Notes under the pieces: model-generated
What the model saw: the letters and a program-made list of their open reading frames with translations, nothing else
Databases searched by the model: none
What the model was told of the DNA's origin: nothing
Program-made: the position numbers and the translations under genes
Part shown: one piece after another, positions 10,040 to 62,465 of the stretch
Numbering within the stretch: the first letter of the stretch is position 1
Layout of the letters: every line of letters starts with the position of its first letter
Assembly: GCA_024137785.1 (NCBI GenBank)
Contig: JAHRHZ010000031.1
Location: forward strand, 7,512,535 to 7,576,534
Source of the DNA: Ginglymostoma cirratum
Lineage: Eukaryota
Direction: 5' to 3'
Length of the DNA stretch: 64,000 bases

Positions 10040-10212
10040 ATTTGCCTATCATGGTACATCTTGTTTACATTTTCCCATTTAGCATCAAGCTGATCCAATG
10101 CATCCTGTATGTGTTCAGCTTCTGTATAAGGGATGGTCTGTAGAGCTGCAGGTTTCTTGCTGTGTACTGCTTCTACTCTGTCTGAAAGTTTCTCCAAGCT
10201 CCTTTTTATGTT
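10040..10212 (-). CDS. DMD: Dystrophin exon 43 homolog (173 nt, phase 0-2)
   Basis: ctgcag|AACATA...GCAAAT|gtaagt. Translates NIKRSLEKLSDRVEAVHSKKPAALQTIPYTEAEHIQDALDQLDAKWENVNKMYHDRQ. Same length and phase as human exon 43. Confidence 0.95.
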
Positions 10213-20841: not shown

Positions 20842-21039
20842 CTTTAAACAAGCATCCTGCTTGGAGAAATCTTCAAAGTCCTTTGCTTGGAGCTCAGGGG
20901 AGTTGAGCAGAACCTCCACATCACACACAGCTTGGTGAAGCTGGCGTATCTCTGCCAGGTAGGTGGAAGGCACATAAGAGGGTTCTGGTGATATCCCTTC
21001 AGTCAGCACAGTTACAATGTTCTCTTCATAAATACTTCG
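20842..21039 (-). CDS. DMD: Dystrophin exon 42 homolog (198 nt)
   Basis: caccag|CGAAGT...TTAAAG|gtaaga. Translates RSIYEENIVTVLTEGISPEPSYVPSTYLAEIRQLHQAVCDVEVLLNSPELQAKDFEDFSKQDACLK. The SYVPSTYL and KDFED motifs match human exon 42. Confidence 0.95.
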
Positions 21040-23160
21040 CTGGTGTGAAAATACAACATAATATTCAACAACAAACTAACAAATAAACAAACAAACAGGC
21101 ACTGGCTGAAATAACAAACTGCATTAGCGAGGTTGACAAAACATCTAAGTTCTGAAAAATCATTTTACCCATTGTAGCTGATTGTGCTGTTAGTAAATAT
21201 GGCACTTCAGGTTCCTAAAATGGCCCTTCAAAGATTGATTTATCGTAAAGCTTACACACAGTGCAAATGCAATTTTCTTTGGGAAGTTCGCAAATCAGTT
21301 TCCGTAATGACAGAGTTAAAAACATAGAATCAAGTTTTGAGGAGTATAAATTCAAAGCACTGAAATGGATACAGCATTATTCTCCTGTCACCAAAATACT
21401 GCTAAATACAAAATCCCCTTTTCCAAGGTACATGACTTGTGGAGTCAATGTGTGGAGTTATGTGGAGTCAAAATATTTGCCCAATTTGGTGTCTTTTCCC
21501 CCCATTAAGCAGGGAGGTTAAAATAATTTCTAAGTTGTTCAAAGCCTGTCACATTGGTTTTTGCAACACTAAAATTTATCCGGTCTCAGCAAACACCCAA
21601 GTAATACAAATACTTGTTTGTAGAATTTCACAAGCAGCTATACAGGCTTCAAAATAAAGTATAAATGTGTATCACTAATGATCTTAATTGGCATAAGCCA
21701 TTATTTTAAACTTGACAGGTAAGTAAATATGTGAACTGAGATCACTCAAAATATTTTAACCAATTAGCCAATCCCTGCATCCTCCCCACTTGCAACCATA
21801 AGTTTTATAAAGCTGTTAATGAACAGAGTGAAGAATTACTCAAATATTCAACATTAACAAATATCTTACAATTTAAAAAGAAGTAGTTTTCAGGCCATGC
21901 AAGTGATGACTTTAGATGTTCGGCTTCACCGATATAACATGTTTTTACAATTAAGCCAATTAATATATCGGTTAACTCCGAAAAACTTAGACAAATAGCA
22001 AAAAGGATGAACATAAAAATGAATTAGGATTGTAATGAAGCAGCATGGAATTCAATGAGAAATATGTCAAAAAAGATTTTAAAAATACCATGAAGCCTTG
22101 GGTGTCTTCAAGATGGAAGAAGATGTGATGCAGCATTCTGAGCATGTTCCTGTATGTGTGAAACAGGTACAGCTGCAAGCATCTTTTGAGTTCAACAGTG
22201 AACACAGCAGTCATGTTTTCAACAGCTCCAAAGAAAATAAACAGTATGTAAAATAAGGTTCAACACCATGCAACTTTTTCCTCCACATCCTAATGCAGCC
22301 TTGAGATCAATAAATTTCAAGTGGAATACATCAAGCACAAATTAATAGCATAGAATAAAGTTATGTGTTTCCTGTCAAAAAAATAACCTGGTAACTTGTT
22401 TTCTGCAGTTAAATCATCATATCAAACCTTTCTGAACAATGTGTGAACATTAATTTAATTTCAAAGGGATAGTTTTCTCAAAATTTCATCTTCAATTCTA
22501 AAAACAAAACAATTGCCTCAATGAGTTCATACTTTATTTCAGCAGTGTAAGATATCCTGTTAATAATGATTTAGGCAAAAAAAAAGTCAAATGCTTGAAG
22601 TGTTAAGTTATGTATTTAGGGAAATCAGGCACTATTAATGCTATCTGTTACTTCAGATTTACACTGGAATAAGAACTCATAGGTGGCCCAAAGGTTGATT
22701 TGTTATTTGGCACTTTATATAAATCAAATCCATAGCAATGTGTCATATTTCAGAGTACTAAGTTTAGTTAAGTTTAATTTAGAGTAATGTTTATTTATTT
22801 TTGTTATTAAATGGTTTAAGCTAAAGCACTGGAATTGTTTACAGTAAATGTTTCTGTTTGATCGTTTTAAAATACACCAACAGAGAAATATATAATGCTT
22901 CACCGTAAAACTGGAGATTAAAATTTATTTCCCAATAATTTGTAATTTGTCAATGAGTCAATATAAAAGATAAAGGAGCATAAACGGGTAGGTATCACGT
23001 GGAACATTAAACTGGTTCTCAACAGATTCGTGCGCAGTTGATTCTGTCAGGAGTAGGGATGGAAAATGAGAGCAGAAAAATTCGCAAAGCTAAAGATCTG
23101 AATAACATAAGAGAACTTGAAGGAAAAAAGAACCGATCAGCCCAAAGAGTATTGCAACAA

Positions 23161-27396: not shown

Positions 27397-29929
27397 CGTG
27401 AACATACCTTCTCACCGACAGTAAAAAAAAGCTTGTCCTTATCTGCTTGAGCAAAGCTCTTCATAATTTTGAACAAACCCAGCAACTCTTTCCTTAAGGT
27501 CCTCTGCTCCAAACAGCATAATTTCTGTCTTTGTCCTCTCTCACAGGAATGAAGTCTTCTTTCGTGGTACTAATCTAATCTATCACTTCAATCCCTTTTC
27601 CCAGTAGGAAAAAAGTTCTGCAATGAAAAACAATGCAGCAAGGCTTCAGCTACAAGTTGATTTGAAAAAAAAATTGCGAAAAATTAAAATTAAAGTCAGA
27701 GTTGTGCAAAGGAATTTCTTAACCAAAAACATGAGATTCTTTAAATGATTTTATCCAATCCTAAACCAGCAGTTAAGATTAAGGGATAATCATGATACAT
27801 TGTTTGCTCCATTGCAATTACATTTGCAAACAGGAGGGGATGGCAAGGAGAGGAACAGGTCACATTAGTGTCAAAATTGAAAGCAGGTGGGAAAAATCTG
27901 ATCTATTGTTCTTTGTTCGTCCTTTGACGTCTATTCATATATTGTTACAAGCTTTTCAGAATGGCAAACCAAGAATGGGAAAGGTTAACGTAAAGCAAAT
28001 ATTTGTTTTTTTCCTGAAATTGTATTTTTTCTTGAAATTCTGTGTAAAGTCTGTCATAGTCATTCAAATATTATCTCTCCCCGCCATCCATCCATCCAAC
28101 TTCCAAAGCAGTATTTTGTGAAGAGGGTTTTTTAAGTTCAAAACACGCTTGTTTAATCTCACTGAAAGCAGAGGCTCAGAAACTATATAGCTGTAAAAAG
28201 CAGACCAGCTTACTGCAACTATTATTTTTCAATGAGAATTTTTTCTCAAAACATATTACTTTGTTGGTACCTAAATGAACACAGTTGTGTGCACCTTTGA
28301 AAGAGGAGATTTGCTTTTACTTTATATGACAACACTTGAGCATTACAATGAGTATTACAAGTAGGACAAGTATAAACAACAACTTCAAGAATGTTTCCCT
28401 CTCTTTTTCAAAACTATGGAAAACAAACGCCAATGTTACCAATTAAAGTGAACAATGATGCAGGGTAACTTTATTTGTTTGTAAAATAAGAACTGCAAGC
28501 CTCCAATTCACTCTCCATGTAATCTAATTTGGAAGTAGTCATGTACAATTACTTGCTGCTTACAATGGATATCAGAGTATTACGCTTGTTTCTTTTCAGA
28601 ATGGAAGCCTAGACGTTACTGTTGGTGATCTTGGTATTGGATACATTGGTGAGATATTTGCCTGCCCATTACTGTAATATAATCATTCACTTACTTATTT
28701 TAAATCTATTCTCTCCTCTGTTAAAACATCAGAAAAAAAGGTCACATAAACAAATTAATCTTTTATCTATCAATATCCTGAACAGCATTGTGTAAAGAAA
28801 ACAACTTGTACTTTTCACGATTTCACAGTATCCTGTTCTCACTGTTGTAATGTGGGAAGCATGATGGCTAATTTGTGAATGACCAGGCTCCATCAACAGC
28901 AAATGAGATAACAGCCAGATAGTTTGATTACAGTGATGTTGGAGGAGTGTTTAGGGATGATCTAGATCCTGATTCGATTTATTTATTGTCACGTATATTC
29001 TGTCGCAAAACACAGAGAGAAGTGTTGGTACAGTGTTGCCACTCTCCAGTGCCGTCCTAAAACACGGAAGTATAAACCACAACATAGAATATAAAGCAGA
29101 GAAAAGAAGACATAAAGAAGTGTTCAACTTTATAGTCCTTTCTGTTAAGTGCTCCGCCATGGGCCTGGTGACCAGGCATGAGTCTCCTTCACCGCATCAC
29201 TGCCGCTATAATGAAAGCTGCCACTCTTCAGCGTCATGTTGTCTCCACCGATTCTGTCGGCATGACGAATCCTCGATGGACCATGCCAATGCAGATGCCA
29301 CCAATGCCACCGGGTACCACACTGGCCCAAACTTGACTCTGCCACCACGGCGACTCTGCTTCAGGCCCACCTCGTTGACGCAGCTACTGCTAATGCCGCT
29401 GGCTCTCATACTGGGCCCAAAGTCACCTTCACCGCCACCTCCACGAGTCTATGCTGCATGCCGACACCACCGGGAACCCAAACCCGCCGTTGTCACTGCA
29501 GTCATGAGTCACGGCTAGGACCATGATGCAGAAGCTGCCAGGAACACAAACTCACCTCCGATGCCACCACCACAAGTCCACGCTGCTGGGTCTACGTGCT
29601 GCTATCAATACCGTCGCTGCAACAGAGCTCTTCAGCAAATAAAAAAGAAAAGAAAGAAGAAACTAAAAAGAAAAAAAGTGGACAGAGAGGACAAGCTCCA
29701 GGTGCAGAAGCCCTACTCCATTGTCATCTTACTGAAAGCCTGGGGGATTTTGTATGCTCTTCTTTGAATCCGAGATATGTTTTTTTTTTAATCAAAGGAT
29801 ATGGGCCAAAAGCAGGCCTATTATGGTGGCCACAGATCAGCCGTGATCTTATTGAATGGTGGAGCACGCTTGAAGGGCTGAATGGGCTTCTCCTGTTCCT
29901 ATGTTGCAAACACAACACACCAGAAGTGC

Positions 29930-31315
29930 CAAGAGGATGATCCATCTCAGCTTCCACTGGAGATCTCCAGCATCACAGTTGTCAACCTTGAAACAATCTG
30001 ATTTACTCCATGTGACATCAAGAAATAGCTGAAGGCACGGGACTATGGCCCTGACAACACTTCAATATTAAGTTGTTTCAGTGTAGCTATAACACTAGCT
30101 TCCGATAATGTGGAAAATTGTCCACGAAAAGTCCACGAAGTGCAGGGCACATTCAACTCAGTCAGTGTCGGTCAACAGTGTCAATGAGCAAGACTACAAA
30201 AGAATAAGCTGCTTATTGACCCTCAGGTTAGATTCTGCCAGAGCCACTCATCCCCTGTCCTCATTACAGCCTAGGTCTGAACACGGACAAAAGAGCTGCA
30301 TTTCAGACAGGAGAAGAGAAAGACTTTATGTATTTTGTGGCAAGGCTACATTTGACAAATTGTGAAATCAAGGAGCCCTAGCAATACCGGGAGTCAAGGG
30401 GAATCAGGGAGAAAAGTCTCTGCTGGGCGGAGTCATTCCTAACACAGTAGAAGATGGTTGAACTTGGAGGTTGACGATTTTAGTCTCAGACACGAAGCAG
30501 AATCCTCAGTTGCTTTTAATGATTTTTCCTCCATCATTAAGACAGAATCGAAGTAACTCACTACCATTTGCAGAACATTCAGGACCACTTACCATTTCTC
30601 AGAGACCGAAGCAGTTCATGTCCACCTGCACAAAGATCTCGACAACACTTAGGCTTAAGGCTAATGTGTTAAATAACATCCAAGCCACATAAGTGCTAGA
30701 CAATGACTGCCTCCAATAAGATGCAATCTAACAATCCCTCTGTGACTTTTAATGGCTTCACCATCCCTAAATTCAATTCCGCAGTATCAATTTCCTGGGA
30801 CTTATAATTGACCAGAAACTGAATAGAACTAGCCAAATAAATATGTGGCTATAAAAGCAGGCCAGAGGTTGTAGCAAATAATCCATTTCCCATCTTGCAA
30901 TGTCTGTTCACCATCTACAAGGCATCTACACTCAGTGTAATGGAATACTTTGCACTTGCCTGGATGGGGATAGTTCCAGTAACGCTCAAGAAGCTTGATA
31001 CCGATCAGCACCAAGCCACCCACTTAATTGTCAACCCATTAATCAATTCCAACATTGACTTTGTTCACTGTGAACGCTACCAGCAGTGTGTACCATCTAC
31101 AAGTTACACAGCTGTACTTCTGCCAGCCACCTACCAAACCTGCACCTCTACCAGCTAGAAGGACAAGGGTAGCTGACGGTTGTGAACACTACCACCTACA
31201 AGTTCCCTTCCAAGCCACTCACCATCCTGCCCTGAAAATCCACCAGATAATGAGGGACAGACAATAAAAGTAGGCCTCACCAATGGTGTCCACATTCCAT
31301 GAAAAAAAGGTCAAA
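29930..31315 (+). mobile_element. L2/Crack-type LINE, degenerate RT region and tail
   Basis: Remnants gcaTTTGAC...atcaaggagccctag and TIYKA...MEYFALAWMGIVPVTLKKLDT. Tail cacattccatgaaaaaa. Confidence 0.75.
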
Positions 31316-43245: not shown

Positions 43246-43428
43246 AATTTGTGGATAGTTCAACCTTCGATATTGAACAAATTTGCTCTCAATGTCATTC
43301 CAGCGTTTGTTGAGCTGGATCAGCTGCAGCTCCAGTGCCTTAGCAGCTCCTTTCTTTGACAGGCTCTGTGCTTGCCTGCACACAGCATTCAGGTCTCCCC
43401 TCTTCTCTTCCAGTTCTGCATCCATCTC
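43246..43428 (-). CDS. DMD: Dystrophin exon 41 homolog (183 nt)
   Basis: cactag|GAGATG...CAAATT|gtgagt. Translates EMDAELEEKRGDLNAVCRQAQSLSKKGAAKALELQLIQLNKRWNDIESKFVQYRRLNYPQI. Same length as human exon 41. Confidence 0.96.
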
Positions 43429-45787
43429 CTAGTGAGTAAAACCATACGGTCCCAGAGCAGTTAGCTAGCTATTGTCTCAACTTGAAGAAAAACTAAACAA
43501 ACTGAAATAAAACATTTTCAACTTCTTTATTTAAGCGTCTTGCTTCATGAACACATCATAATTTTATCAAATAACAGGATAGAAAAGCAATGTCCTAAAT
43601 AGCATTGAACCATTGTCTTACCATTTGCAAGCCAAAACCAGCGCTATAGAGTATTACCCGACACAGTTTACTAATCTGGAAAAATGGAGTGTTTTAATAA
43701 CTCAATGCGGCACAAACCAGAAACAGCTCACTTTCAGAGAGTTTGGTCTTCTCTCAGCCAGTTTCGTGGATGTGGTGCATTGCCAACATGAGGTAGTTAT
43801 CAAGAAAGGAGCAGCGGTATTGCTGAGAATAGCGGGAGATAGAACCACCTGCTTTAAGTCCAGCATTGGCATTTTTGACTGCTTTTGTAAACTTCTGTCA
43901 GCTAAAATCTCGGGAGGCAGCATTGCAACAGTACAGACTGTGGACCTCAAAGAAAGTTGGTATAAAAAATTCTAGTTACCTGTCGTGTGGATTTTTAACG
44001 TCAGTTTGAATCTGACAGTAAGTTAAGGGAATCTCCAAGCACCCAACATCAGTGACATAGTTAAGAAGGCGAAGCTGCAAATCACAATAAAGTATCCTCA
44101 CAGACAGTAAACTGCTTTTTTTCACTTTTAATTAAAATATTATAGAGAATTTAAGACATGATTAGAGTACACAACATAAGACTAAGGTAGAAATATCATA
44201 AAAGAAACTTATTAAAGAAGTTTCTTTTGAAAAATTGGGTTTTTTTTGTGAAAAATGGTGGAGAAATTTGAATTTCCACAAGAATAAAGCGAAGTTTTTT
44301 TAGGGCCTGTGAAGCACTCAAATATAATGATAAACTTAATGTGCAGTTAACCATCCAGTTAACCACATATAACAAGGTACATTTTCTTCCAAGGGTTTTT
44401 ATACTGAGATCAATTATGCAAAATGGAAGCTTTTATCAGTTCAATAATTTCTATTTGGTAGGATACTGCAGAGACTTTGGAAACACAGCCTATGGTGAAA
44501 CAGAAAAATCCAAAAAAAAAAAAATAGCTGTTAGGGATTCTATGTGCTTCCTCTAAAGGCTGCTGTCAGTTTCAGGCCAACAAAGACTGTGAGCACTGAC
44601 AGCTCCACAAAATCTGGAGCATCACTTTGCTTCAGCTGGAGTTAACCTTTGTGATTCTTGACTGGAAATGGTCATACAAATGCAATTGTAAAACACTATA
44701 AAGGACATTGCATTGCTAATTTTGAAATTACTAATCTGGATGGATATATCAAAATTACTGATAATAATCTTTTCAAAGATTCAAGTTATGATAACACAAT
44801 AATCATAGTTTAAGACTTAACAAGGGTTCTTTGAAGTTGAAAAAACGTTTGCATTAACAAATAGCTGCCTGAAGCATAAGCGTGCTAGTTTACCCTATTG
44901 GCTAGCCTGTTGATTGTAGTATTGGGTGATTTTTCTCCTGATAAAGACAGTTCCTTTATCTTAAAATCTGCTAATTATTTGTAAGTCAAAATGACAAAGC
45001 AAGTGAAGAAGCAAATGAAAATAATGAATCATTAAAAAAGTGAATCTGACACGTATAAATAAACTCAGGGAAATGTACAATGACAACAGTGATACATGTT
45101 CTGAGCAAATAAGTGAGAGAGAGAGGCTATAGTGGTAAGGCCACACACATTATCAGACAGTGCAGGGACCATACAACTGTCCCTTAACTGTTCTGCGCAT
45201 AACAACAATAACTGGACAATTGGTTTCCTGTAATAAATGAGATTTAAAAACAAAAGAACATCCCAATTACATTTGTATTTCTTATATGTTGACACAATTT
45301 TGATACAGATCACAGTACCATTGGTGAGAGTCAGGCAATTTCTATTCCAGGTTTTATATGGAGTGTAAGATAGAACTATTGATAACTTAAAGGCCTCACA
45401 TACAGTGACGCCGGGAGGAATAAAGTTATTAAATTCACATACCTTCTGCCTTCAAATTCTTCACCCCATCAAATTTTTATTAATAACCACATTTTAAAAA
45501 AATTCAGCAATATCATTGATAAATTAAAAACCATTGCAGATTTTGTATAAATGAAAAAAAAAGACTAAACGCATTTTGGCTCTTTCACCAATAGAACATA
45601 GGCCGCCAGCAAAAAAAAAATCAGTAGATAATGATCAAACAGTCTGACTAGAATAAATGCACCCGAAGGTACAAGATGTATTACAAAGGAGTGCCACATG
45701 CATCCAAATCTTTAGTTACAGCTGACTATTTTTTTCTCTGATTATAGAAAGAGAAATGCAAACACCTGTTTTTAAAAGAAATGTTAC

Positions 45788-45940
45788 CTTCATCTTCTGG
45801 ACATCTTTGGGTTCTGGAAGCCTGGCTAATCTTTTCTCAATGTCATCCAACCACTGCAAAAGATTGTCGGCCTGCTTCTTGTACTGATACCAATGTGGAG
45901 AAATCTCCAGTGCTTTCTTCCTCCTAATTGATCTTAAATC
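45788..45940 (-). CDS. DMD: Dystrophin exon 40 homolog (153 nt)
   Basis: aaacag|GATTTA...ATGAAG|gtaaca. Translates DLRSIRRKKALEISPHWYQYKKQADNLLQWLDDIEKRLARLPEPKDVQKMK. Same length as human exon 40. Confidence 0.96.
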
Positions 45941-46529
45941 CTGTTTAAAAAGGTCAATGATTATTACTTGTTAGCCATTGCATAATAAGAGCACAAAGTA
46001 TCAGAAACACTTAGCCTAAGTTCACACAACTTGTTCAAGGCATTTTTATTTTCCTCCTGTGTTCCATTCTGACGCCTTTGCTTAAAAAAAAACTCTTGTC
46101 CGAAACAAAGTTAACAATGTAGGTTGATGATCTTTCTTGCAAAGTCATCAAACTGAAATGTTGACATTAATACCAAATAGGGGTCCTGAGGCCACATTTG
46201 CTGGAAGCCAGACAGGCAAAGCTGTTTTCCTGGAAACAGCCTGATACTTGTCTACCTCTGCAACTGCTTTGTATTAAAGACAGTGATTGGTCCAGTCACA
46301 GGGCCAGTCTGTTGGGGAGAGGTAGGTGTTCTTAAGCTAAGAGGCAAGCTCAAAATGGAGGCTCTTGCAAAACCCCAAAATGTAGTTTTTACAGGGGGCC
46401 ATGGCAGAAGGCCAATTGGATTGCAGAAAAACTCCTTCACTCAGATCTTTGGGAGATAGAACCTCTGACCCTCTGACTCCAATCACCCTCAGGGTTGTAA
46501 CCTGCATGAAGCTGGTAACCTCCCCATAC

Positions 46530-46745
46530 AGTGAGTGTGCCTGTGTGTGTTTGCATGATTGAGAGTAAACAAGTGAGAATGTGAGAGTCAGAATGGGAGG
46601 GTGAGTGAATAAACAAGCATGAGAGTTTGAGTACGAGAGTGTGCAGGTTTGTGAGTGAGTGTGAGAGTGAGGGTCACAATGTCAGAGTACACAAACGTGT
46701 GCTTGAGTGAGAGCAAGAGAGAGACAGTGTGTGTGTACTTGTGTA
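46530..46745. repeat. Degenerate (GT/GA)n low-complexity tract
   Basis: gtgagtgtg/gagagt repeats. Confidence 0.7.
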
Positions 46746-49173
46746 AATTTGCTGCATAACTTTCCTACCTACACTGGGGAACACCCTTAGCAGTGGGAAG
46801 GCATGGAGATGTATGCTCAGTTAGCAGCCCACTATCCCTGCAATCCTTCCACACCCCCACTCCAAGCTGCTACCATTGGACAGGGAAAGCTCTGCTCGTT
46901 AGCTTGCTGTTTTCTCTGAAGATGCCATCTTTATTCTTTGCCAATAGTGTTGTTACCCATATGATAATCTCTGAAATTGTTATCATCTGTTTAGATTAGC
47001 ATTTAAAGATAAATCCAAAAACCTAATAACACAAGAAGAAAATAATGCTTCAAAATTTCACATTTCACACTTCAAAGCACAAACTTCATTGCATTTAAAA
47101 TAGTTAAACTAAAAAAGCAATTAACACCAGAAATTATAACTACACATGTTTTGGACATGGATTTGTACTTTCCTAAATAGCCTCACTTTCAAACATAATG
47201 TAAAATCCTATCATATTGTGGTCAGTCATTCCTAGAGGTACTTTTACAAGGAGTTTGTTCATTAGCCATGTTTCATTACATAATACTAGATCAAAAGTAA
47301 CTTATTGAGGATTGTTCCTCGTAAAATGCTTTAGAATACCATCCCTAATGCAATCCAACAAGTTATCCTCCAAGCTTTCGCGCTTAATTTTCACTGAAGT
47401 GGAGAAATAAATTTATTTTGCAACCATTCAGGATTTACTACTAAATTAAGTTCTACCTGTCAAAACATAACCATCTTCTGAACTGCCCGTACAGTAGAAA
47501 ATATTTCTACCCAAAGATCTGAAAATGGGTCATCTATTGTTTTGTTTTCTTCCCCTTCTGTTTAATGATCTCACTTTTTGAGCTGTTAACCACTCAAGTC
47601 AACATGGCCCTGGCCTCTTGATTAACATGGTGTTTCTTGAGTTGTAATTAATTCAGGCATGATTTAATTTTATTTACACCATAACTTACCAGTATCAAAA
47701 TTAGCTTTACTTGATGTATGTTTCAATAGTTCAGATTAGCAGCAATTACTGAGCCTCTGTAAATTTAAATAATAACTATTTAAGGTTGTACAACAATATT
47801 ACCTTACAGCAGTATATTGAATGCTGCTAAAACCAAGGTGGACTCTCCTCGCACATTTCTGTCATGTGATTACTTATATCATCACCATGGGATGCGCTAT
47901 TTACACTGTCTCGAACACTAATCCTTTTAAACCTTTATACTACACCCCCAATTCTCTACAATTACTACTTAGGTCCCTGAAGCCAAAACTTTTGTTCTAA
48001 ACCAAAAGCTATGAACTTAAGTATTCCCGACAAGTCATTTGCTGAAGAAATCTACAGTCACGCTTACTTCTTACATTTTTTCCACAAGTTTTGCTAATTA
48101 CCTACGATTTTTTTCAGGCCTTAGCTAGCACAACAGTGATAAATGCTTCAAAAGCTGATTATTGTTCCCTTATGTCAACAGTTAAAAGATGCATGTGATT
48201 CAACCAAATGTCCTTCACAGAGATTTCTCCTTGCACATAATATATTCAGTGCCTCGTGCAGCTAAGAGCTTACCATCTCGGAAGGATGATCAGGAATCCA
48301 CTCAATATCATTCCACGGTACAGTGAAATGAAACAAGTAAGAATCCAAACATTGATTTTACATATTACAGCACTATGTCATATCTCATCAAATATGGAAG
48401 AGCTCAAAAATGTAAAAGACCTATGTTGTACTTATTACCTCTGTTAATCACTACTTTCAGAGTGAAGTTATCCCGCAAATATACTTGAATAGCTGGATCC
48501 CAAATGTACAATTTCCATTTCCACTCAACGAAGTTTGATGATTGATAATGGAGCTATGACAACAGCAACATTTTTAAAGGTTGCAGATTAAATAGGAGTA
48601 ACTTTTTAAAACTGTTGTGGTTGGTCATTGATAAGTAATATTATTAGACTACTTTCTCCAGTATTCGCTCCTACATCTGGTCATAAGAAGCAATTTTGTC
48701 AAGAGGAGTTATGAGGTGCTTGCTTAACTTATCTCAGAGGTATGGCCAATTCTCAGAATTTTCCTGCAAGTCTCCAAGTTAATTGCTGACTACATTAGAA
48801 TCTTTCATATCAAACTGATTAAACATTAACCATGCACCTTCTTTAATGCAACACATTGCCAAAGGGATAGTCATGTATGATACTGTACCTTACATTGACT
48901 TAATGAAAGCGTAATTTCCTAAGCATGAGCTTGAAAGTAACAGATGGGAAAATCACGGGCAAACTGCCTGTTATTTGCTGCTGTGTGCTGCCAGGAGGTA
49001 AGGTCCCAAATGACAGTCCATCTCATCAAATTATTCACTTTATGCAAACCTTAGACACAGGAAATTGAACACTTCCATTTCTGTTACCTAATCACAAATC
49101 CACAGTTTTCAAATATACATTGAATTCTCTCAGAAAGAAAGTTCATAAAAAGGCAAAAACAAAACTTTGGTGA

Positions 49174-49416
49174 AGATAGTAAGAACTGCTGATGCTGGAG
49201 CCAGAGATAACACAGAGTGGAGCTGGAGGAACACAGCAGGTCAGGCAGTATCAGAAGAGCGGGAAAGTTGTATGTTTCAGGTCGGGACCCTTCTTCAGAA
49301 GGATCCCGACCCGAGACATCAGCTTTCCTGCTCCTCCGATGCTGCCGGGCCTGCTGTGTTCCTCCAGCTGCTCACTGTGTTATCTCTGGCTCCAGCATCA
49401 GCAGTTCTTACTATCT
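49174..49416. mobile_element. Fold-back (palindromic) Penelope-like element
   Basis: About 120-nt inverted arms (agatagtaagaactgctgatgctggagccagagataacacag... / ...ctgtgttatctctggctccagcatcagcagttcttactatct) joined at a hammerhead-like motif. Confidence 0.85.
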
Positions 49417-50888
49417 CTAATAAAAGTTAGTGATGTTTTCCAGTTACAATTATGGCACAACAATGGTCTGGAGACCCTAGTGAGCGGCATTATAATTAAT
49501 CCATATCAACCGAGAGATCAGAGAAATGTTGCAATGCTGTGCCCAATGATAAACTTGATCCCGGCATGGTATGGACAGTCACATCTCACTCAACCTTCTG
49601 ACTATGATTTGAATAAGTGTAGTGAACAAAAGGTAGGCATCATCTTTCCTCCAAGAGTTAATATTCCTTCAATTCTCTGCCTCTCCCTTTGATGGGAAGA
49701 GTCATCATGAGAATTTATGCCATACCTTTTCAGGGGGACTTGTACAGCTATGTGTTCACAATGATAAAGTACTTCTACTTACAGAATTCAGTAATGCAAT
49801 TGCATATCGCTGTTAGGTAGCAAAAGTTAGGAAAATAATGGCCCTCTAACATCAAGGAAAATTGAATGACTCTGTTGGATGTCTTTAACCCTGGCCTGCA
49901 AGTAAAATTTCAAGGACGAAAGGAGAAGGTTGTAGTAACCTTTATGGCTACTCACAGTGCCATTTGCAAATAAGTGAAAATCATTGTTAGCAATTGTACA
50001 GTCAGCATGATCTTCAGGCTCAACTGCAATCTCCAAAATATTATATTGCAGTACACCCTAAGATGTTAAAGCTAATAGTTTGTAGACAACTTTTGGTGTA
50101 ACGCATCCTCCCCCTCAAAGTCTGTAACAGTGACAGAATACAATACCCAATTGTAGTCTGTATTTAGAAGAAGCTTTTGTTAAATTAGCTGTTTCCCTGC
50201 TCAGCATCTGTATCCAAATTGTAAGAACCAAAGAAATGCACCAAATATGCAATGAGTAAATTCACTATTTTGGCTCATCTTGTGTTATTATTGTATTAGA
50301 AAGGTCAAGTATTGTTTCACATACCTGTTGTACTCAAACAGAGAAATTCTCTCAAGTGACACATTTTTAAAACTGGGAACAATCAAAAATCATATATATT
50401 AAGCCATATCTTTGCCTTTGTTACCATCTTTCTAACCAGTCTCCTCAAAATAAACCACTTAACAGCATTCAGTTCTGTGCAATGGACCATACCGATACAT
50501 TACCAACCTAATGTCAGTGAGCAACACAGTGCAATTTACTTTGATGTTTAAATTGCATAAGATATGCATTCCTTATTCATTATCTGAAGCTGTGGACTAA
50601 ATATCCAGTGTCGTCTTCAGCACTGTTGGGGAAAGAAATATCATTTTGAGAACAAGCAGCACACTGTCTCACTTGATTTTATTTTGTCAATGGTGAATAA
50701 TTTAACTTGAGGGGCTATCTGCAGAGATTCCAACAAATTGTCCAATTTTGACAGAAACATTCCAAAGTACACAAATGGAATGACCAGAAAGTAAGTAGCC
50801 TAACAAAAGGACAAAACTGTATTTAGTTCCTGGTATTCCAAGGGAGTCTCCAGCTGATGTTGATTCAGGAATTGTTGATTGATCATAC

Positions 50889-51026
50889 CTTGAGAATATT
50901 AAATTTAGCCTGCAACATCTGCTGCTTCATTCTAATTTCTTCTCGCTTCTTCTCATTTGTGACATTCTGTTGCAATTTGTCTCCCATTTTTGCCAGTTCA
51001 TTCATTCGCCTCTCATCATCTTCACT
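50889..51026 (-). CDS. DMD: Dystrophin exon 39 homolog (138 nt)
   Basis: ttctag|AGTGAA...CTCAAG|gtatga. Translates SEDDERRMNELAKMGDKLQQNVTNEKKREEIRMKQQMLQAKFNILK. Same length as human exon 39. Confidence 0.94.
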
Positions 51027-51120
51027 CTAGAATATTAATAAAGTTGCATTACAATTACATAGGTCACATTTGGGGACAAAAAACATATATACTTTTCAGA
51101 ATTAACTTTTCATTCACTTC

Positions 51121-51570
51121 GCTGGACCTGAAGGGTTTGAATTATAGGGAGAGGCTGAATAGGCTGGGGCTTTTTTCCCTGGAGCATCAGAGGCTGAGTG
51201 GTGACCTTATAGAGGTTTATAAAATCATGAGGGACAAGGGTAGGATGAATAGCCAAGGTCTTTTTTCCTAGGGTGGGAGTCCAAAACTAGACAGTGTAGG
51301 TTTAAGGTGAGAGGGGAAAGATGTAGAAAAGACTGGAGGGGTAACTTCTTCACACAGAGAGTGGTGCATGTATGAAACGAGCTGCCAGAGGAAGTGGTGA
51401 CGACGAATACAGTTACAACATTTAAAAGATATCTGGATGGGTATACGTATAGGAAGGGTTTAGAGAGATATGGGCCAAATGTTGGCACGTGACTACGTTG
51501 GATTGTAATGTCTGGTCAGTACAGACAAGTTGGAACAGAAGGTCTGTTTCCATGCTGTATATACTATCTT
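51121..51570 (+). mobile_element. CR1 (HER1-like) LINE 3' end
   Basis: Encodes LKGLNYRERLNRLGLFSLEHQRLSGDLIEVYKIMR. 3' UTR ggtctgtttccatgctgtat. Confidence 0.9.
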
Positions 51571-53809
51571 CCACTCTCAATGTGGTGGCGCTTGGCTTGT
51601 CTCCATTTCAAAAGGAGCTTGTAAAGGGTACTTGCTCACTGTGCAATATCAGCCCTTTAAACCTACAATCATGCCCTTAATGATGATCCGAACCGGCACT
51701 GAGCAATTCAAAACTTCCATTATGTTAGAAATAATACTCTTCTCAGGAGTAATGGTCAGTTCCAATCTGAAGAACAGTTCAACAAAAGATGAGAAACGAA
51801 AACAGATAATATTTTATAAAGGAGATCCAGTGCATTATAAAATAAGTCATGACTTCTGTTATTTATTTGACAATCTCTAAAACTAGGGCTATAAATAAGG
51901 GGAAACATCACACATCATTTGAAAATAATACAATTTTAAAAGCATAACACAAAATTAGATTCTCTCTTAAAATAAAACTGCTGAGCCGTGGAAGTAAAAT
52001 TACTCTTGTTGACCATTTCAGCAAAGCTAAGGTCAGCACTCTCAATAATCACATTTTTTTTTCACAAAAATGATCAGCAGTGGGGATTTCACACACTGTT
52101 TCCGATGAAAGATTGAATTAAAATTGCTGAACAAGAGTTATTGGGTCCTGGATTTGGGTTTTCAATTCCAGTGGAACATGAGAAATCAATTACTAAATAT
52201 AATACTTTTCACTGAAATGTAAAAGAAAACAATGCACAAGGTTAAAGTAAATTAGGCGGATTACTCTGTGCTAGCTGAATAAGCACTGTAATTGATCTGA
52301 ACCAACATTAATGGAATATTTGCTTTTTTGGTGCAAGTCTACAATTATCCAAAGGTTTTGCAAAAGATACTGTTGAACAGTTTCTATTTAGATTTTTCAA
52401 AATAGTTATTTGTCATACTTTGACCTTTTCCTTTTGCAAAGTTTGTCAAGACTGTATTTTATAACTTTCCAACTATATACTTGTTCATGAAATAAATGTT
52501 GAATTTTTCAATTATATGCATTTTGCTACATTTGGGAATCCACATTGATACATCTTAAAATTTCTCAGACTTTTTCCTTCAATGTACTATCTAATTATTA
52601 TGTTCCCTTTTCCTCTGTGCTTTTGACCACTTCCAGTTCTTTTACTATCTTTCTTGTGTATTTATGCAAGAGCATGGATAATAACACAAAATCTGTCACT
52701 GAGTCCCTTGAGCCAGTTTGAGTATTCAATTAGGTATTAGTAATCTGTATCTCAACTCCACTATCTGCATTCATAACATAACATTTCATACGTTTGTCAG
52801 CAAAAGCAATCAAACACTATTATGTTACAGTTCTAAATTTCAAAATCTATTGACAAGAGATCATTGCATTTTAAATGTGTGTTACGTGATCTGTAAATAG
52901 ATAAAAACAAAGAAAATAAAACTAAATGAGTGGTGTATGACATAAGAAACTTCATTTTTGATGCTCCAATGTCACCCATCTTAAACTTTGCAGGAAGGGA
53001 TTAGTCTGTTAAAGCCAATAACCTTGTATGGTTTCTGAAAATTGCTACATTCTTACATTGCAAAGATACATCAGTGACATAAGCTTATTTTTGAAAAAAT
53101 ATATTAGTTTTCAATGTCTGGAACCGTGAATGTATGAGAGGAAAGAAAAATACTCTTTATCTACAATTCTCCTTTCAGTGGTGTTAGATTCAATAATTTC
53201 CAACAGTGAAATCATTTCTCTTTCCCCAAAGAAGTGGAATGCAAGATCCCGAATAAAGGTTATGTTACACATTAAACAAACCAACAAATGTTGGAGCATT
53301 GTCACATTTTTCATATCCCTGATTTCTCTGCACATTTTCTCCTCTAACTTTGTCTCCCATATTATGGAGATCAAGAGAATGCTCTCAGACTGTGATGTAT
53401 GATCTAAACAAATGCATGTCAGCTAACCCAATGACTAAAATGAGGGTTTTACATGTTTATTTTGTTTAAACAAGATTATATTCAAAATTTCAGATGTGAG
53501 CTTTCATATTCTTGTGAACTGCTACATCCACATGCCTCTTTGAATTTCAAGGTTGAAATTTCTTAAGTCTAAACTCAGAATTAATGTGTCAAGATGTTAC
53601 TCACGCAACCATGAATTTCTATTGCTACAAGTCTCCATGTTTAAAGGAGAAACACTAAGATATGAATAGTGGCAGAATTATTCCATTAATTATACTATCC
53701 AATTGAGAAACAACAATCTTTTGTGTTTAGTCCTTCTTGGAAAGTCAGCCATCAATTCAGCATTTGGTTACATCGCTAGTCCTAATATTGCTACTTATAC
53801 CCAACTAAC

Positions 53810-53926
53810 CATCTCTTTCTCAAAATCCCCTTCTTTTAGATTCTCTCCTTGTTGTATTTCTGATTCCAATTCAGCAAGCAGTAGCTGGATATTTGTATCA
53901 AACTGTTCCAACTCCTTTGGAGATAC
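53810..53926 (-). CDS. DMD: Dystrophin exon 38 homolog (117 nt, phase 0-0)
   Basis: tttttcag|GTATCT...GAGATG|gttagt. Translates VSPKELEQFDTNIQLLLAELESEIQQGENLKEGDFEKEM, versus human ASIPLKELEQFNSDIQKLLEPLEAEIQQGVNLKEEDFNKDM. Confidence 0.92.
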
Positions 53927-55749
53927 CTGAAAAATAGGCAGATAGAATTACTTTGTTTAACTGCATGTAAACCTGCCTCTAAGTAGTCATGTTCACAGGC
54001 AATACACAGAACATTTAAACACTATATTTCGTCTTAAGTCAGGTTATTTGTGTCTGTTTACGAATCCTCACAAAACAAAACACAATGATTTCAGTTCAGA
54101 ATCTACAGCAGTTAGATTAAAATCCTTACTCAAGCTTAGTAACAGATCATTAACATTACAGGCTCTCCCACTCAGACTAGCAGTAATTGCTCATAACTTC
54201 CAAAAGAAACATGCCCTTTCTCCTCTTACACTGTGATTTTTCATGATGTGGAAGTGATTTGGTCAATCTTGCAACATACTAAAAATGTAACCAAAGTTAA
54301 GAAGAAGCCATTACTTATTTGAAAAGAAAACCTGCAATCATTTGGTACCATGACCAATCTTAAGCCTTGTTTGAATCTTCCAACGATAAGCATCAACACA
54401 AGCTCTAAGCATGTCCGCCAGTGGAACGTGTTCTAGGGAATTCACACGCCGAGTGCATATATGAAGATGTTATTATCAATTGATGGTGGTGCACTTGGGT
54501 GCAGATAATCATTCCTAACTGCAAAACTCACGCAACAACATATCAATAGGACTAATTGGATGAGATTTTTGCAGTGAATGGTAATTAATTGGCCTCAGTG
54601 GCACATCACCAATTTTTGAAAAAGAGGAAAGAACTTTGGATAATTGATGATGGGACACAGCAACTAAGCAGATGAAGATCAGTCAGCCCATCAAGCCTTC
54701 TTCACCATGCAATTAGATCATGGCTCAGCATCACTTTTGCTCATTATTCCCACTTTGCTTGAGGTTCTTGCTTTCTGGAAAGCAATCAATCCCTGTCTGG
54801 AACATCCAATGACTCAACATCCACAGCACTGTAGGACAGCAGATTGCTGACAATGATTCTATTGCTTAGGATTGCTTTGAATGAAGGGATTGTTCAACTC
54901 AGTTCTAAATGCCTAACTCTTCAGAAACTGTGACCCGTAGTTCTTGATTCCAGTTCAGGGAACCATTTTCTGTCAAGCAGCTGAAAAAAAAATTATGAGG
55001 AGCATTTGACATTGCCCCATTAGTGCATTCGCAGGCAGCAAAACCCATATAATTTCCTGGCTGATCACCCCAACATGCTCTCACCATCTTGACCTATCCA
55101 CAATTTTATGGGTGATTAGGCCTCGGGCAGCCCTCTGACCGCATCCAAATTAAGACCTTTAAACGGGCATATAAGGGTTGCTTTCCACGTAGCCTCAAAT
55201 TTAAAGCTGGCAGCTGAACTTCAGGAATGGGTTGACATCCAGCAGATCTCACCCTCAAGCCTTAGGTGGGAGGAAGAAACCTCCCTCAATGGTCTACTTT
55301 CCATAGTGGGCCCCAAGGTCTGCAACCCTTGGAGTTTCTATTCACTTTATATGATTGTTCTCAAAGAATCACCTAACAGGTTACTGTCTGGAGGTTTGCT
55401 GCCCAGTGACACAACTGTCAGCATCTCAGACTCCTCAGAAATCAAAAAAAGGGATGTGAAAGCTCAGAATAAACAAGAACTGTCTTGATACATTGTGTAA
55501 TATAACCAGTTTGATGGAAGGTATAAACCAAGTTACATTAATGGTGATAACGATCCCATACAAAATGGTTGGTACAATGACTCTGATTTGGGAGTTTTGC
55601 CACAAACAGTACAGCAGACTGTGCACAATGTCATTTACCACAAGGGGAACTGAATGCAAGAGTAGGAAAATTATGCTTCAACTATATAGGGCATATCTGG
55701 CATACCATGCACAGTAGTGCTCCTTGTATTTAATTAAGTGACATATAAG

Positions 55750-56972
55750 GTGTGTGGCATGAATATTTTAATATCATTTTTTTTGAGTTTGGATTTTTGA
55801 ATTTGAACTGTTGGCATAGGATTTTCTGCATCTGAAAGAATTTAATTATGAACTTATAAATATTACTGTCACCATGGTGTTTCTTTTAAAAGTGACACTG
55901 ATAGTTTCCAAGGACTTACGGGTTTTTGTTTTCTTTGGGAGAGTTTTTATGGTCAAACAAAATAGACAGGTGTTGGTTAGAGGTTCTAAAAATAAATTTT
56001 TTTTTAAGCAGAAGTGGAAGCATTCATATCTTTGGGAAAAACGTTTATAAGTTTTAGTTTGAGGAGTTCTATAGGATTCTTAGCTAAGCTGAATGTGCAA
56101 AACAGTCACCCCTGATAAACATGGAAGATTGCTTAGAATTGTTAAAAGTAGTTTACTTTATAGTGTTTTCTTTATATTCATTCATACTACTGTAGTCCAT
56201 TTGGTGTTGGTAGACCCATTATGCCATTAAGGAGTGAGTTCCAGAATTTTGACCCAGTGACACTCAAGACACATGGATATATTTCCAAGTGAGGATACTG
56301 AGTGACTTGGAGGGGAACTTGTAAGTGGTGGTGTTTCTATTTCACACTCTCAGTTTCCTGCGTCTGATGTTTCTTCAATAGTTCACTCCATTCTGCCACT
56401 CCTGCAGGGCCCTTTCAAATCGAGATTCTCATTGTTTGCTGTCCTACATCAGTCCATACACCCTATCCCAGAGTCAAGGAAGTGAGAGGCAGGATGATGT
56501 TTACATTCATCTGTAGATATGGAAGTCAAGAGTGGAACAACAGTAAGAGTTCCAGACCAGAACTGTTTGGTCAAAACCCCAAAGGAGTTATTTTAAGCAG
56601 AGGAAATAAGGTTGCTTCTAAGGAGGCTACAGGAAGAAGCTATCAGAATTCCAAGATGGGGAATTGAAGCACAGTTAGATTAAGACCTAGAGGAGTGATC
56701 GAGGAGAGCATTCTCTCTGGTGCAAATATTGTGAGGGGTGATTTTGGGACAACTGTGATTATCTTTAAATGTGTGTTATATGAAAACAATTTATGGTTTA
56801 TTTTGTTCTATCTTCATCTCTTTTGCTTCATAAACTTCTGTTTTATTTTTGGAACCAAATCTGCACCCATGGCATGTTTGTTTCAATGAAAAACCGTTTT
56901 GCTAAAACTGGAAAAAAAAAAAATCACTCATCAAGCCAGATTCAGTCTGGAATGTGACTTGACGAGTAACAG
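55750..56972. mobile_element. Probable solo LTR with an internal L2-type fragment (about 56170-56340)
   Basis: Block begins tgtg and ends gagtaaca. The inner segment matches the reverse LINE tail (gagttccagaattttgacccag). Confidence 0.35.
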
Positions 56973-57039
56973 CAACAGAAGGATGTAATTGTCGAAGAAG
57001 AAAATCAAAGATGGTTTATTCAATTGACACCTGGAATGG

Positions 57040-57460
57040 AGGCGTGTGTCTTATGAGCCAGGGCTGGACAGGCTAAGCTTGCAACTGTTGGAGCTTAGAA
57101 GAGTTCGGGGTGACTTGAATCAGACAAGATCCTGAGGGGTCTTGGCAGGGTAGATGTGGACAGGATGTATCCTCTCATGGGAGCATCTAAAATAACGACT
57201 GTCCATTTATAGCAAAGATGGGCATTTCTTTTTCTCTCAGAGTGTCATGAGTCTTTGAAATTCTCTTCCTGGATAAGGAGGAGGAAGCAGAGTCCTTGGA
57301 TATTTTTAAAGAAGTAGGTAGATTCTTGTTAACTAAACTGGTGAAAGTGTACCAAAAGTAGATAGGAATGCAGATTTGAGGTAACAATCAGATCAGCCAT
57401 TGTCTTGTTGAATGGCAAAGCAGGCCCAGGCTAAATGGCCATTCTTGCTCCTTGTTCATG
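57040..57460 (+). mobile_element. CR1 LINE 3' end
   Basis: ttggagcttagaagagttcggggtgacttga...atcctgaggggtcttggcagggtagatgtg...cagatcagccat. Confidence 0.75.
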
Positions 57461-58159
57461 CTCATTGTGCTCACTATCTACAACATCATGATAATAGCTT
57501 CACAAGTGCACTTAGTGTGTGATATTTCCAGAACCCTACAGAAATATTGTATGTTTAAAAAATTGTTTGGACATTGTACCTGTGTAATCAGCAACAATAA
57601 ACTAAAAGTGTGAGCTAAAACCCATCTTGATCTCTGTTGAGAGCATCATTACACATATTAGTAGAGTTTGAAAGGAATTTAACTTCAACCAGCCAAGCAT
57701 GAAGTTAACAATGTGCTACTTGAATGCAAAGAGGGAGGGAGAACATGTGAGAATGGAAGACACAAACACACAAAAGTTGAGACTGAGGTTAGATTCTGTG
57801 CACACAGCAACTCATCAGGGATAGCACTAAGTGAATGAATCAGAACTGCAGATCAACTTTGAGACTGAATTTGCATCTGTACTTTCTGGCAGAATTTGCC
57901 TTGCCATAAAAATTAAGAAGAAGCTTGAATTAGTGACTTTTCTTTCAGTATTTTAGGCTGTCATTCTAAACACAGCAAATTCCACTTTCTTAATATCAGC
58001 ACACATAGAAACAATATCATCATCCACAAGGACAAAAAAAGAATAATTTTGGGAATTAAAATTTTAACAATGACATCATCCAAATTTCTTATGTAAGATG
58101 ATGAAGTTGGTGTACAATGGGAACCCAACTGAATTCTAGCTTTTAAAATATTTTTTTAT

Positions 58160-58229
58160 ATAGAATCCCCGTAGTGTGGAAACAGGCCATTCAGCCCAAC
58201 AAATCCACACCAACCCTCCGAAGAGCATC
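58160..58229 (-). mobile_element. HE1 SINE short 3' fragment
   Basis: Reverse complement of 33705-33770. Confidence 0.75.
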
Positions 58230-59799
58230 AGACTGTGGATACATTTGGAAAACATAAGAGCTGATGTCTGAAACACTGATTTTTAATCAAGCCACAAATT
58301 TATTAAGTAACAAATTAACATTTTGGCAACTCTGCACATCTTTTAAGTTGCATTTCCTTCCAAATTTGTGAACACATCTGCTGGGAAGCTTCAATCCTGG
58401 ATGAATCATAAAAAGAAAGATTTTGGCATTGTGATCGAAGATTCCAATAATCACAAAGCAATGAACTTGTTACATTTTGTTACTGAGTGCAGAAATGCAT
58501 TACCATGATTTAGATGTCAAACTTTTAGTCCGGTTTGACCACATTTCCTATAATAATCGACCAGCTGCAAAGGGATGATATTTCTCTTCTGTGCCAAACA
58601 CAAGCTGCATTCCAAAGATTTACAAAAAATACATATATCTCATATCTATTACACACTACAATTCTCTTTACAAAGTACCACATCATTCCCTAATGGATCA
58701 CTGTAGTGTGAACCCTGTAACAGGAAGGTGATATTCTACCCAGTGGAATGATTACTGTTACTGGTAGTAACGGGGTTAATGGTGGAGGTAGTGTAGGGGA
58801 AACCTTGGGTGACTTTCAACAATTTTACAGGGTCACGATGAATCTTTCAAGAATAACTTCAGAGAATTTAAAGTCAAAGAAAACTAGGTGGGATGGCTGT
58901 CTCTCACTGATAGATGACATCTTCAGCAGTGGAATTTTGAAAACTGATTTGAATGGTTTTCAGAATGACAGAATTATTTCTCCAAACAGTCGGCCGGAAA
59001 ATTAGTTGACTGAATAGTGCAGAATGGTAGCCAAATGAAGAGTTGTCTTTATCATTTACCGCACAAAGTATTTTCAAAACCTTAGGTCTATCCCTGTGAA
59101 AGAACACATCAAATTTGTAACCTGGTGACTTCCTGCCGGAGATGGGCCAGGAAAAAGAGAGGGATGCAGACAGGAACCAGAGGTTGAAGATGAACGAATA
59201 GTTGATAAACTAGTCAGTCGGTAGGTTTCCTTCAGTCCCTCAGTTGATTTTTGATGACTTTCTAGAAGCTTAAGCTTCACCAAAAGAAGATAGTGAGGAG
59301 CATGAGATGGAAGTATAGTTTTTTGATACAGCATGTACAATCTATGAAGCATGAGACACAAAAGTACAGACCTCTAAAAGAAACAGTAAATACTGTTTAT
59401 AAAATGGAATTAAATCTGTTTTTAAGATCTTTGTATTGAAATAAAGTGAAAAATATCAGATTGTGATTCAAGATCAAATTTGCAACAAAACCAAGCCCTT
59501 AGAAAGTCCTTCAATGGGACACATGCATTCAGAGAATGAAATACTCTATTGTGGGATTCTTAAGGGAAGATTTGGTCCGTTGCTCTCGAATGAGCACATA
59601 CTATATGTCAATAAGTACGCTTAAAAAAAAAAATCACAATTTTCCGTGTTGTAAATTGGAAAAATATTCTTGCTGTTAACGTAATGCTGCTAGACTGTGA
59701 CACCCTATTTTATTTGCAATACGTATGTTTTTCTTTTGAAATGTATCAACATTATGATTGAACTGGATGAAAATATTATCAGCATTTACAACACTGAAA

Positions 59800-60780
59800 T
59801 AAACCATTTAATTCCATAGATTCACATCAGTTTTTATGCTCCATTTGAGAATCTTCCCACCCTTTTTCAATTAACCTTCTTCACCATAATCCTCCCATTC
59901 CTTTCTCTCTGTTTTTATTGAGTTTTGCCTGAAATGTATCTATTCCATTCACAGCAACTCATCCTAGGAGTTCCACTTTCTGACCATCTGTTGGGAAGGA
60001 GGAATTTTTTCCTGAATTCCTGATTGGATTTATTAGCAACTATTACGAGACCCCTAGATCCAATCTCCACTGCAAATGTAAATTTCCATACTAAATCCCT
60101 TCATAATTTTAAAGACCTCTTTCAGGTACCCCTCAGTCATCTCTTCTCTGGACCAAAAAACACCTAACTTGTTTAATTATTTCACACTTAATATAATGCT
60201 AGAAAAGGTGCAGAAACTATTTACCAGTGATTCTATATCTTTTTTACAACATCTAAACCAAAACATAACTCCAAGAGCGTGATTTAACCAAGTGTGAAAA
60301 CTTCTCTGCTTTTCAGTTCTATTCATCTAAAAAGCTTTGTTTGCTATCTGTACAACCTACCTGACTCTCTTTTTGTTTATTGATCTGTATATCCTTCACT
60401 CCAGATTCCTCTGCTCCTATACCCATTTAGACATTAATTTTCAAGTAAATGTATGGCCTGTTTGTTCTTACTTCTAGAAATCCATCACGTCATACTTGGT
60501 TTTTGCAAAGACAATTTTCCAATTACACATTCCTTCGAGTTTATTCAGAGATTTCAATACTTTCATAAATTACTCACACATTTACTACACAGTTCAATCT
60601 GGTGTTGGCCACAAATTTTAAAATTATACTTCATATTCCAGTGTCCAAGTGGTTATATAAACAATGAACAATGATGATCCTTATGGAACACTTCTACCCA
60701 ACTTTTGCCAGTCTGAACTACCCAGAAATCCTACACTTTGATTCCTGTTTCACAACTACCTTGTGATTCATATGTCCATT
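59800..60780 (-). mobile_element. Old CR1 LINE remnant
   Basis: tttcctgaattcc, cccttcataattttaaagacctct.tcaggt and ccagattcctctgctcct resemble the reverse CR1 copies. Confidence 0.55.
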
Positions 60781-61459
60781 TTTGTCATGTTGTTTTGTTA
60801 GTGTATTAAATACAATATAGTTTCTATCGCTGCAATCTGATGATGCCATGTATATCAGATGAGTCACAGAACGTCTCTGTTCAGTCTAAATTAAATCATG
60901 GCATACGATCAATGAGGAGGCAACCAGACACGAATTTCAGTTAAGCAAGGAATGTGGATTTCTGTTCCAAAAATATTGGACTAGAGTAGATTTCAAATAA
61001 ATCTGAGAATAGGTCTCACCATCAGGTTTGTCTTACTATATGATGGTTTAAAAAAAAATGGAAACCACTTTGAAGTCTCTAAGCTGCTAATTCAAGAATA
61101 AATATCTTATAATTGCCTAACTTCAAAACTGGAGTCTTTGAGGGCAAGTAATCACCATCACAGATATATTTTTGTTTATCAAATCAAGATCACAGCATTT
61201 ATTTAGATAACTGTGATCAGAATGTTAAGCCATTACGTCAGAAAACACTGCAGAGTTCACACCTGCCCAACAAAACAACAGATGTTCTTCGAAGTTTCGT
61301 ACTTAATTACTCCTGACATCCATCAACCCAAAGCTTGTTGCTTTTTAGATCTGGTGAGCAACACTGTGGTGTCATGGGACCAGCCTATCATTCCTTCCAT
61401 TCAGCAGATGTTCTACTTTGCTTTAACCAACCGCTGTATCAGCTGCTAAGCCATCATAC

Positions 61460-61570
61460 CTGCTGCTGTACTTTTTGCTGCACAGCAAGAAAACTCTTCT
61501 GGTTTCTCAGTTCATCAGGATCCATCAGGAATGTATACGGGGAAACAGATACATACTCTAGCACTGGTTG
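61460..61570 (-). CDS. Candidate additional in-frame dystrophin exon (111 nt, 37 aa) between exons 37 and 38
   Basis: Strong acceptor cttccttttcctcacatgcttgcttttcag| and strong donor CAG|gtatga. Only the phase-0 frame is open: QPVLEYVSVSPYTFLMDPDELRNQKSFLAVQQKVQQQ. Confidence 0.6.
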
Positions 61571-62465
61571 CTGAAAAGCAAGCATGTGAGGAAAAGGAAG
61601 TACAACTAAGAATTGTTGTAAGAAAAGTCAGGGATGTACATGTAGAGGGTATGATTAATTAAATGTTTCTACACATCTTTAAAAAAATATTCAGCACACA
61701 CCAAATCTTTTAACAAAACACAATTCTTTGTTGGATTCCTATAATTACACATCAGCAAATTAAAAAAAAACTTCCACAAATTCGATTAAAAAAACCTTGG
61801 AATTTAGAGGAAAATACATGTTGGCGTTTGTGGTATGAACATAATGTACTGCAAATGTTGAAGAACTGAAATAATCAGCAATTTTATCTGCATGCGTGGC
61901 GAAAGAAAGACAGCAAACACTTGACGTTGATGACATACTCATGAAACATTAAAAGCATGCCTCCCTCCATCGATGTTACCAAACCTGGATATTTCTGACA
62001 TTTTCTATTTTTATAGATAACTGTGATATTGAATCTTGTTTTCAAATACAAACAACCATGACTTAAAAACTACCTTGTATTTTATTTAAAATGAGTATTT
62101 ACCTGCTTATAACACATCTTAAACCTCTTTACAACTGGACCACAAAGATGACTGTCTTCAGAATAACTTCCATTGGCTTACAAATAACCTTCATAGTTTC
62201 TTTTTAAATGTTATTCTCAGGTCATTCACAAGGTAATGTCTGGGGGAAATCTGGTACAGCCTTTGGGTGTTAAATTGGATTGCTCATGACAACATATGAG
62301 GTTCACAACACATGACTTGCTTGTTGATTGTAATGCAGTGGCACACCATTTGTTGCAACCTGCTGCCTATTATACACTTTCAATTCAAACTACTACAGTG
62401 TCTTAGATAACAAGCATGGGGCTGGATGAACACAGCAGGTCAAGCAGCATCACAGGAGCAGGAAA

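Follow-up and report, generated by a model that had tools for sequence, protein, structure and literature searches.

The question raised by this locus is whether a 111-nt segment at 61460..61570 of the window (the whole 64,000-nucleotide stretch of Ginglymostoma cirratum DNA analysed here) is an optional coding exon of the shark dystrophin gene, as an earlier note on this DNA had proposed. The segment, referred to here as 37a, lies on the minus strand (window 61570..61460), which the earlier note had left unstated. It comprises 37 codons in phase 0/0, and its translation is the 37-aa peptide quoted there. Considering its sequence, reading frames, splice and codon scores and word conservation together, we assign a probability of roughly 60% to the reading that 37a is a conserved, usually skipped cassette exon that inserts 37 residues into the linker between spectrin repeats R13 and R14.

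Exons were mapped by tblastn of four retrieved dystrophins against the window and 50 kb of adjacent genome, and the mapping bears out dystrophin as the host gene. Ten DMD exons were located (171, 180, 129, 171, 117, 138, 153, 183, 198 and 173 nt), which we take to be exons 34-43 on the basis of human exon sizes. Exon 37 (171 nt) lies at 7583985-7584155 of contig G000:C31, 7.45 kb past the window end. On the minus strand of the window itself are exon 38 (117 nt, the downstream partner of 37a; 53810..53926, found by tblastn and in spliced contig 24 of run X6), exon 39 (138 nt; 50889..51026), exon 40 (153 nt; 45788..45940), exon 41 (183 nt; 43246..43428), exon 42 (198 nt; 20842..21039) and exon 43 (173 nt; 10040..10212), the last five located by tblastn. 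The 37a segment is thus flanked by 9,880 nt of intron upstream to exon 37 and 7,533 nt downstream to exon 38, and it lies on the sense strand of this DMD intron with AG/GT ends, a length divisible by three, matching phase and no stop. The position of the human variant c.5326-215 in intron 37 (PMC4704476) confirms that the human 37/38 junction is likewise phase 0, as the earlier note had stated.

Some other features of these introns and exons were apparent. For exon 42 (window 20842-21075, minus strand), the likely true acceptor at 21039 is preceded 36 nt upstream by another in-frame acceptor, use of which would add 12 residues. Introns 37-39 contain very high-copy repeat fragments at ~49200-49420, 51130-51540, 56230-56340 and 58170, where contig depth runs from thousands to hundreds of thousands. 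Open-frame fragments, which we take to resemble a LINE reverse transcriptase, are present in intron 37 upstream of 37a (L003 ~2500-2950, minus strand).

The sequence immediately upstream of 37a reads ...cttccttttcctcacatgcttgcttttcag, with pyrimidines at 23 of the 27 positions from −30 to −4. The 3' splice site (61571..61600, minus strand) consists of this pyrimidine tract, which contains TGCT twice (at −14 and −10), and a terminal CAG; the closest upstream AG is at −37, such that no AG occurs for 33 nt. Two candidate branch points, a putative CTCAC at 61586..61590 and a second, CTGAC, at 61631-61627, both on the minus strand, were identified by motif match only. The 5' splice site GTATGA (61454..61459, minus strand) is identical from +1 to +6 to the donor of the real exon 39. 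With an acceptor ending in TTTTCAG and a donor CAG|GTATGA, the 111-nt segment is open in phase 0 only: frame +1 contains the stops TAG, TGA and TGA, frame +2 contains TGA and TGA, and read-through past the donor gives GTA TGA, a stop. The open frame around 37a is 57 aa from stop to stop. The sequence feature is therefore real, just as it was first described.

The same is true of the statement that 37a has no recognisable repeat origin. In its own 4.36-Gb genome, 37a has one DNA match and one protein match (each a minimum count). Contigs in the 37a bin add up to a depth of at most 2.7, whereas repeats nearby reach thousands to hundreds of thousands. A transposon-derived pseudoexon was rejected on these grounds, as no multi-copy source was apparent, and a scan for tandem repeats returned none. 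Duplication of exon 42 or another part of dystrophin was also rejected: in comparisons with exon 42 and three dystrophins, shuffled sequences scored as well as 37a in 179-299 of 300 cases.

We scored splice sites with approximate matrices and took as candidates all open phase-0 non-exonic segments in 114 kb. The summed acceptor and donor score of 37a (9.35) exceeds that of all but one of the ten real exons (34-43) and ranks first among 70 non-exonic sense-strand candidates. Nevertheless, higher scores occur in 4 of 61 antisense candidates, and a control of 20 order-5 Markov sequences yielded on average 0.9 hits at the level of 37a per 114 kb, indicating that the splice and frame signature alone is not beyond chance. 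At the codon level, 37a scores 0.096 on a measure trained on the real exons, a value reached by 7 of the 10 real exons (leave-one-out) and by 12 of 130 decoys. As evidence for an exon, these splice and codon scores are suggestive, not decisive. The runner-up among non-exonic candidates, a 108-nt open phase-0 segment in intron 41 (window 29921-30028, minus strand), scores 7.85.

Conservation was examined at the level of words, using 8 overlapping sampled 31-mers from 37a. Five of the nine sequencing runs listed contain 37a words: X1 (organism A) has 8/8 and X2-X5, which are four runs from one sample of organism B, have 6/8 each. Run X2 aligned across 45600-61800 covers all 30 bins, as genomic DNA would. 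Over 8 listed intronic pieces it differs from the window at 372 of 4,842 sites (7.7%, range 5.6-9.0%), a divergence biased low by the 88% cut-off. If words were sampled at random, the simulated neutral chance of at least 6 of 8 31-mers surviving is 0.008 at 7.7% divergence and 0.03 at 5.6%, the lowest local divergence, in a comparison with one sample of one species that was picked up through holding 37a words. Sharing of 6/8 words is best fitted by 1-3 mismatches within 37a, versus 8.5 expected under neutrality. Because such word survival is improbable and the fitted mismatches are so few, 37a is probably constrained, being conserved above the intron background at the word level in one relative, and this word sharing points to purifying selection on it.

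Runs X1 and X6-X9 are presumed to be RNA. The junction search that had been proposed to test 37a was carried out on contigs, and it revealed the skipping form but not the inclusion junction: neither a 37-37a nor a 37a-38 junction was among the joints listed for contigs of four runs, such contigs tending to drop rare forms. Contig 24 of run X6 (340 nt) matches exon 38 without differences, and its last 71 letters fit the depth in the exon-39 bin. X6 has a depth of 0 at 37a and the first 150 letters of this contig, upstream of exon 38, fall outside that segment, so a spliced form lacking 37a exists; the upstream part of this contig is presumably exon 37. Contig 8 of run X1 (61448-61616) spans both 37a splice sites unspliced, like the other intronic contigs of X1. 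Depth in X1 is ~16-18 in the bins of exons 38-40 and the extra on 37a is at most 1.2, figures that hint at low inclusion and that we do not count as evidence, since contig depth cannot rank gene parts. The zero share of 37a words in X6-X9 was similarly given no weight.

At the protein level, the 37a peptide (47-residue open frame) yielded no candidate among proteins of 84-2000 aa. P0028, the sole match among 1.84 billion 50%-cluster representatives, is a tandem-repeat protein with 8/24 identities and was rejected as spurious. There were no matches to the peptide in the PDB, none among Pfam families at E up to 1 (including the spectrin repeat profile, PF00435), none in a metagenome pattern scan and none in an exact look-up of six local peptides from 37a (0/6).

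Among 264 dystrophin-related proteins retrieved, 239 join exon 37 to exon 38, and none of these 239 carries an insert. The claim that the peptide lies outside known dystrophin thus agrees with every retrieved junction, a set that includes no human protein. The named proteins in this set are from birds, turtles and lizards plus one sturgeon model, with no shark and no human dystrophin among them, and the full-length search covered the best 120 of 559 matches, all from birds, turtles and lizards and ranked in a manner that favours insert-free proteins. The remainder comprises four isoforms in bird or turtle models that lack exon 37 (P0174, P0188, P0191 and P0217), five in such models that lack exons 36-37 (P0151, P0205, P0247, P0249 and P0258), all nine joined to exon 38, as well as four intron read-through ORFs and 12 proteins without junction anchors, six of which were checked by BLAST with no match. 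Two proteins (P0014 and P0161) start at a Met within exon 37. In the sturgeon model P0009, exon 38 is joined to exon 40 and exon 39 is missing, perhaps through faulty prediction. Several lineages may vary at the acceptor of exon 38. Shark gene models produced automatically might already include 37a.

Alternatively, 37a might be a conserved non-coding element, such as an enhancer or splicing regulator in intron 37, whose AG/GT framing and phase-0 openness are accidental. Such an element would account for the word conservation, for the finding of only unspliced and skipping contigs and for the lack of any protein match. However, it requires that splice sites of the highest rank, exon-like codons, the right phase and a length that is a multiple of three coincide by accident. 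In addition, 37a has no Rfam match at E up to 1 and its RNA fold is ordinary (z = −0.64). We consider this explanation unlikely, albeit the best of the alternatives.

Somewhat less likely still is a chance pseudo-exon in neutral intron, with the shared words reflecting a lucky low-divergence patch. Chance should produce about one decoy of this kind in every 114 kb, and the selection of runs favours those holding the words. Moreover, human DMD has pseudoexons with strong sites (PMC5206723), two of them in intron 37 (PMC7175933). The latter, of 51 and 77 nt (PMC4704476, PMC7175933), are exon-like and share their intron with 37a, but they are activated by mutation, introduce a premature stop or frameshift, differ in length and, by eye and unaligned, do not resemble it. 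Against chance stands the neutral probability of the word sharing, only 0.8-3%. Furthermore, a neutral relative at 7.7% divergence would keep one or more words in 32% of cases and yet no run with a low share is among those listed, so that, within the runs covered, selection of organism B from among many species looks unlikely.

We regard as improbable, more so than either of the preceding explanations, that 37a is the 3' end of an alternative first exon transcribed from an internal promoter. An in-frame ATG at 61585 (61583..61585, minus strand), 15 nt upstream of the 37a acceptor, starts a 42-codon stretch that is in frame with exon 38; the product would be an N-truncated isoform of ~1,950-2,000 residues, like Dp260, Dp140 and Dp116. 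By the usual rule for start codons, however, C at both −3 and +4 makes its context weak; the region has a GC content of ~35%, and the sequence upstream of 37a is a strong acceptor, with its pyrimidine tract, CAG and AG-free run. Internal DMD first exons are located in introns 29, 44 and 55. One is located in intron 62 (PMC1790709), and those of Dp260, Dp140, Dp116 and Dp71 resemble what 37a could be in that they are intronic, end in a donor and in some cases encode a conserved peptide (PMC1790709), but they need no acceptor whereas 37a has a strong one. DMD does have internal promoters whose coding first exons are conserved, and the accessible text of Jin et al. leaves the case of cartilaginous fish open and reports an unexplained 260-kDa band in fish (PMC1790709). 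Finally, a recursive-splicing (ratchet) exon for stepwise removal of intron 37 is highly improbable, for although splicing of DMD introns takes several steps and predicted recursive sites coincide with the ends of some pseudoexons (PMC5206723), the 37a acceptor is followed by CAACCA (AG|CAACCA) rather than a GT donor and the intron is only 17.5 kb.

If 37a is a cassette exon, its regulation is not explained by the factors considered. Control by MBNL had been suggested on the basis of UGCU motifs in the acceptor, but YGCY occurs 4 times in the upstream 250 nt and 2 times downstream versus 2.6 expected, and is also present in the acceptors of exons 37 and 38. TGC is found between the branch point and AG of 37a at −14 and −10, which again is not specific because the exon 37 and 38 acceptors have it likewise. 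UGC in this interval is a feature of SRRM3/4-dependent neural microexons (10.1101/2024.09.17.613571), which are 3-27 nt long (PMC13174390); at 111 nt, 37a is far above that range and shares the UGC feature alone. From sequence, control by either MBNL or SRRM3/4 is thus unsupported.

The cassette-exon reading places the insert at a defined point in the rod. Residues 1-55 of the 57 encoded by shark exon 37 match positions 45-98 of 105 in the Pfam Spectrin profile, and exon 37 therefore stops at the end of a repeat. Together with the position of R13-14 within R11-15/17 (PMC3162007), this supports the view that the 37/38 junction falls at the R13/R14 boundary inside the rod actin-binding region. 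Modelling of the human repeats treats R13-14 as a break caused by proline, a putative small junction that lies within R11-15/17, the proposed actin-binding region (PMC3162007). When a 682-aa bird fragment was modelled with AlphaFold (from a 10-sequence alignment; mean pLDDT 70), helices at 390-416 and 423-449 were separated by a low-confidence loop at 417-422; the 37/38 junction, K418/P419, is within this loop, and pLDDT is under 50 at 420-422. The shark junction also holds a proline (TGK|VSPKE). Shark exon 38 lacks two codons at its 5' end relative to the bird, lizard and sturgeon proteins, which leaves a shorter R13/R14 linker in the skipping form.

Judging from these models, the R13/R14 linker site would tolerate an insert. 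The 37a peptide alone is predicted to form coil at residues 1-17 and helix at 18-36 (pLDDT 78, single sequence). Inclusion of 37a, which we suppose to be limited to some tissue or stage, would thus be predicted to add 17 residues in extended form and then a 19-residue helix, with both flanking repeats remaining folded. Midway along the R11-15/17 actin-binding region, such an insert would make the joint longer and looser, and it may offer a new docking surface or motif and could change actin binding. The earlier note had described 37a as adding a proline-containing linker to the rod; the junction is indeed at a linker, but because that linker already has a proline, 37a would extend a break that is there without it and not introduce a new one.

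In a literature search to which most subscription papers were inaccessible, we found no description of a dystrophin exon like 37a, and the name 'exon 37a' combined with dystrophin returned a match that concerns CACNA1A. Cassette exons that have stayed hidden are common. In human skeletal muscle, nearly every DMD exon is constitutive (PMC5206723), and the conserved DMD alternative splicing described so far, in the accessible text of PMC1790709, is C-terminal. Exons 71, 73 and 78 are likewise optional internal exons, the first two of them in frame (PMC1790709, PMC7589424), but they are C-terminal, belong to the human gene and have demonstrated splicing, whereas 37a is in the rod, is absent from all 239 retrieved non-shark junctions and is known from sequence. 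The 20-residue insertion in the R15-16 linker (PMC3162007) is similar to 37a in placing extra loop residues between spectrin repeats in the actin-binding region; that insertion is constitutive and encoded within exon 42, to which 37a has no significant similarity.

If real, an optional 37-residue insert between R13 and R14 would be a natural experiment on the tolerance of the rod actin-binding region, and it would bear on the hinge-versus-helix question for inter-repeat linkers, and on the design of exon-skipping and mini-dystrophin approaches. More tentatively, cartilaginous fishes may keep a tissue-switched dystrophin exon that is missing from amniote gene models, a coil-plus-helix module splitting the actin-binding region at R13/R14 (or, less likely, a ~225-kDa internal isoform), and sharks may thus tune rod mechanics or partner binding by splicing at a point where human muscle is constitutive.
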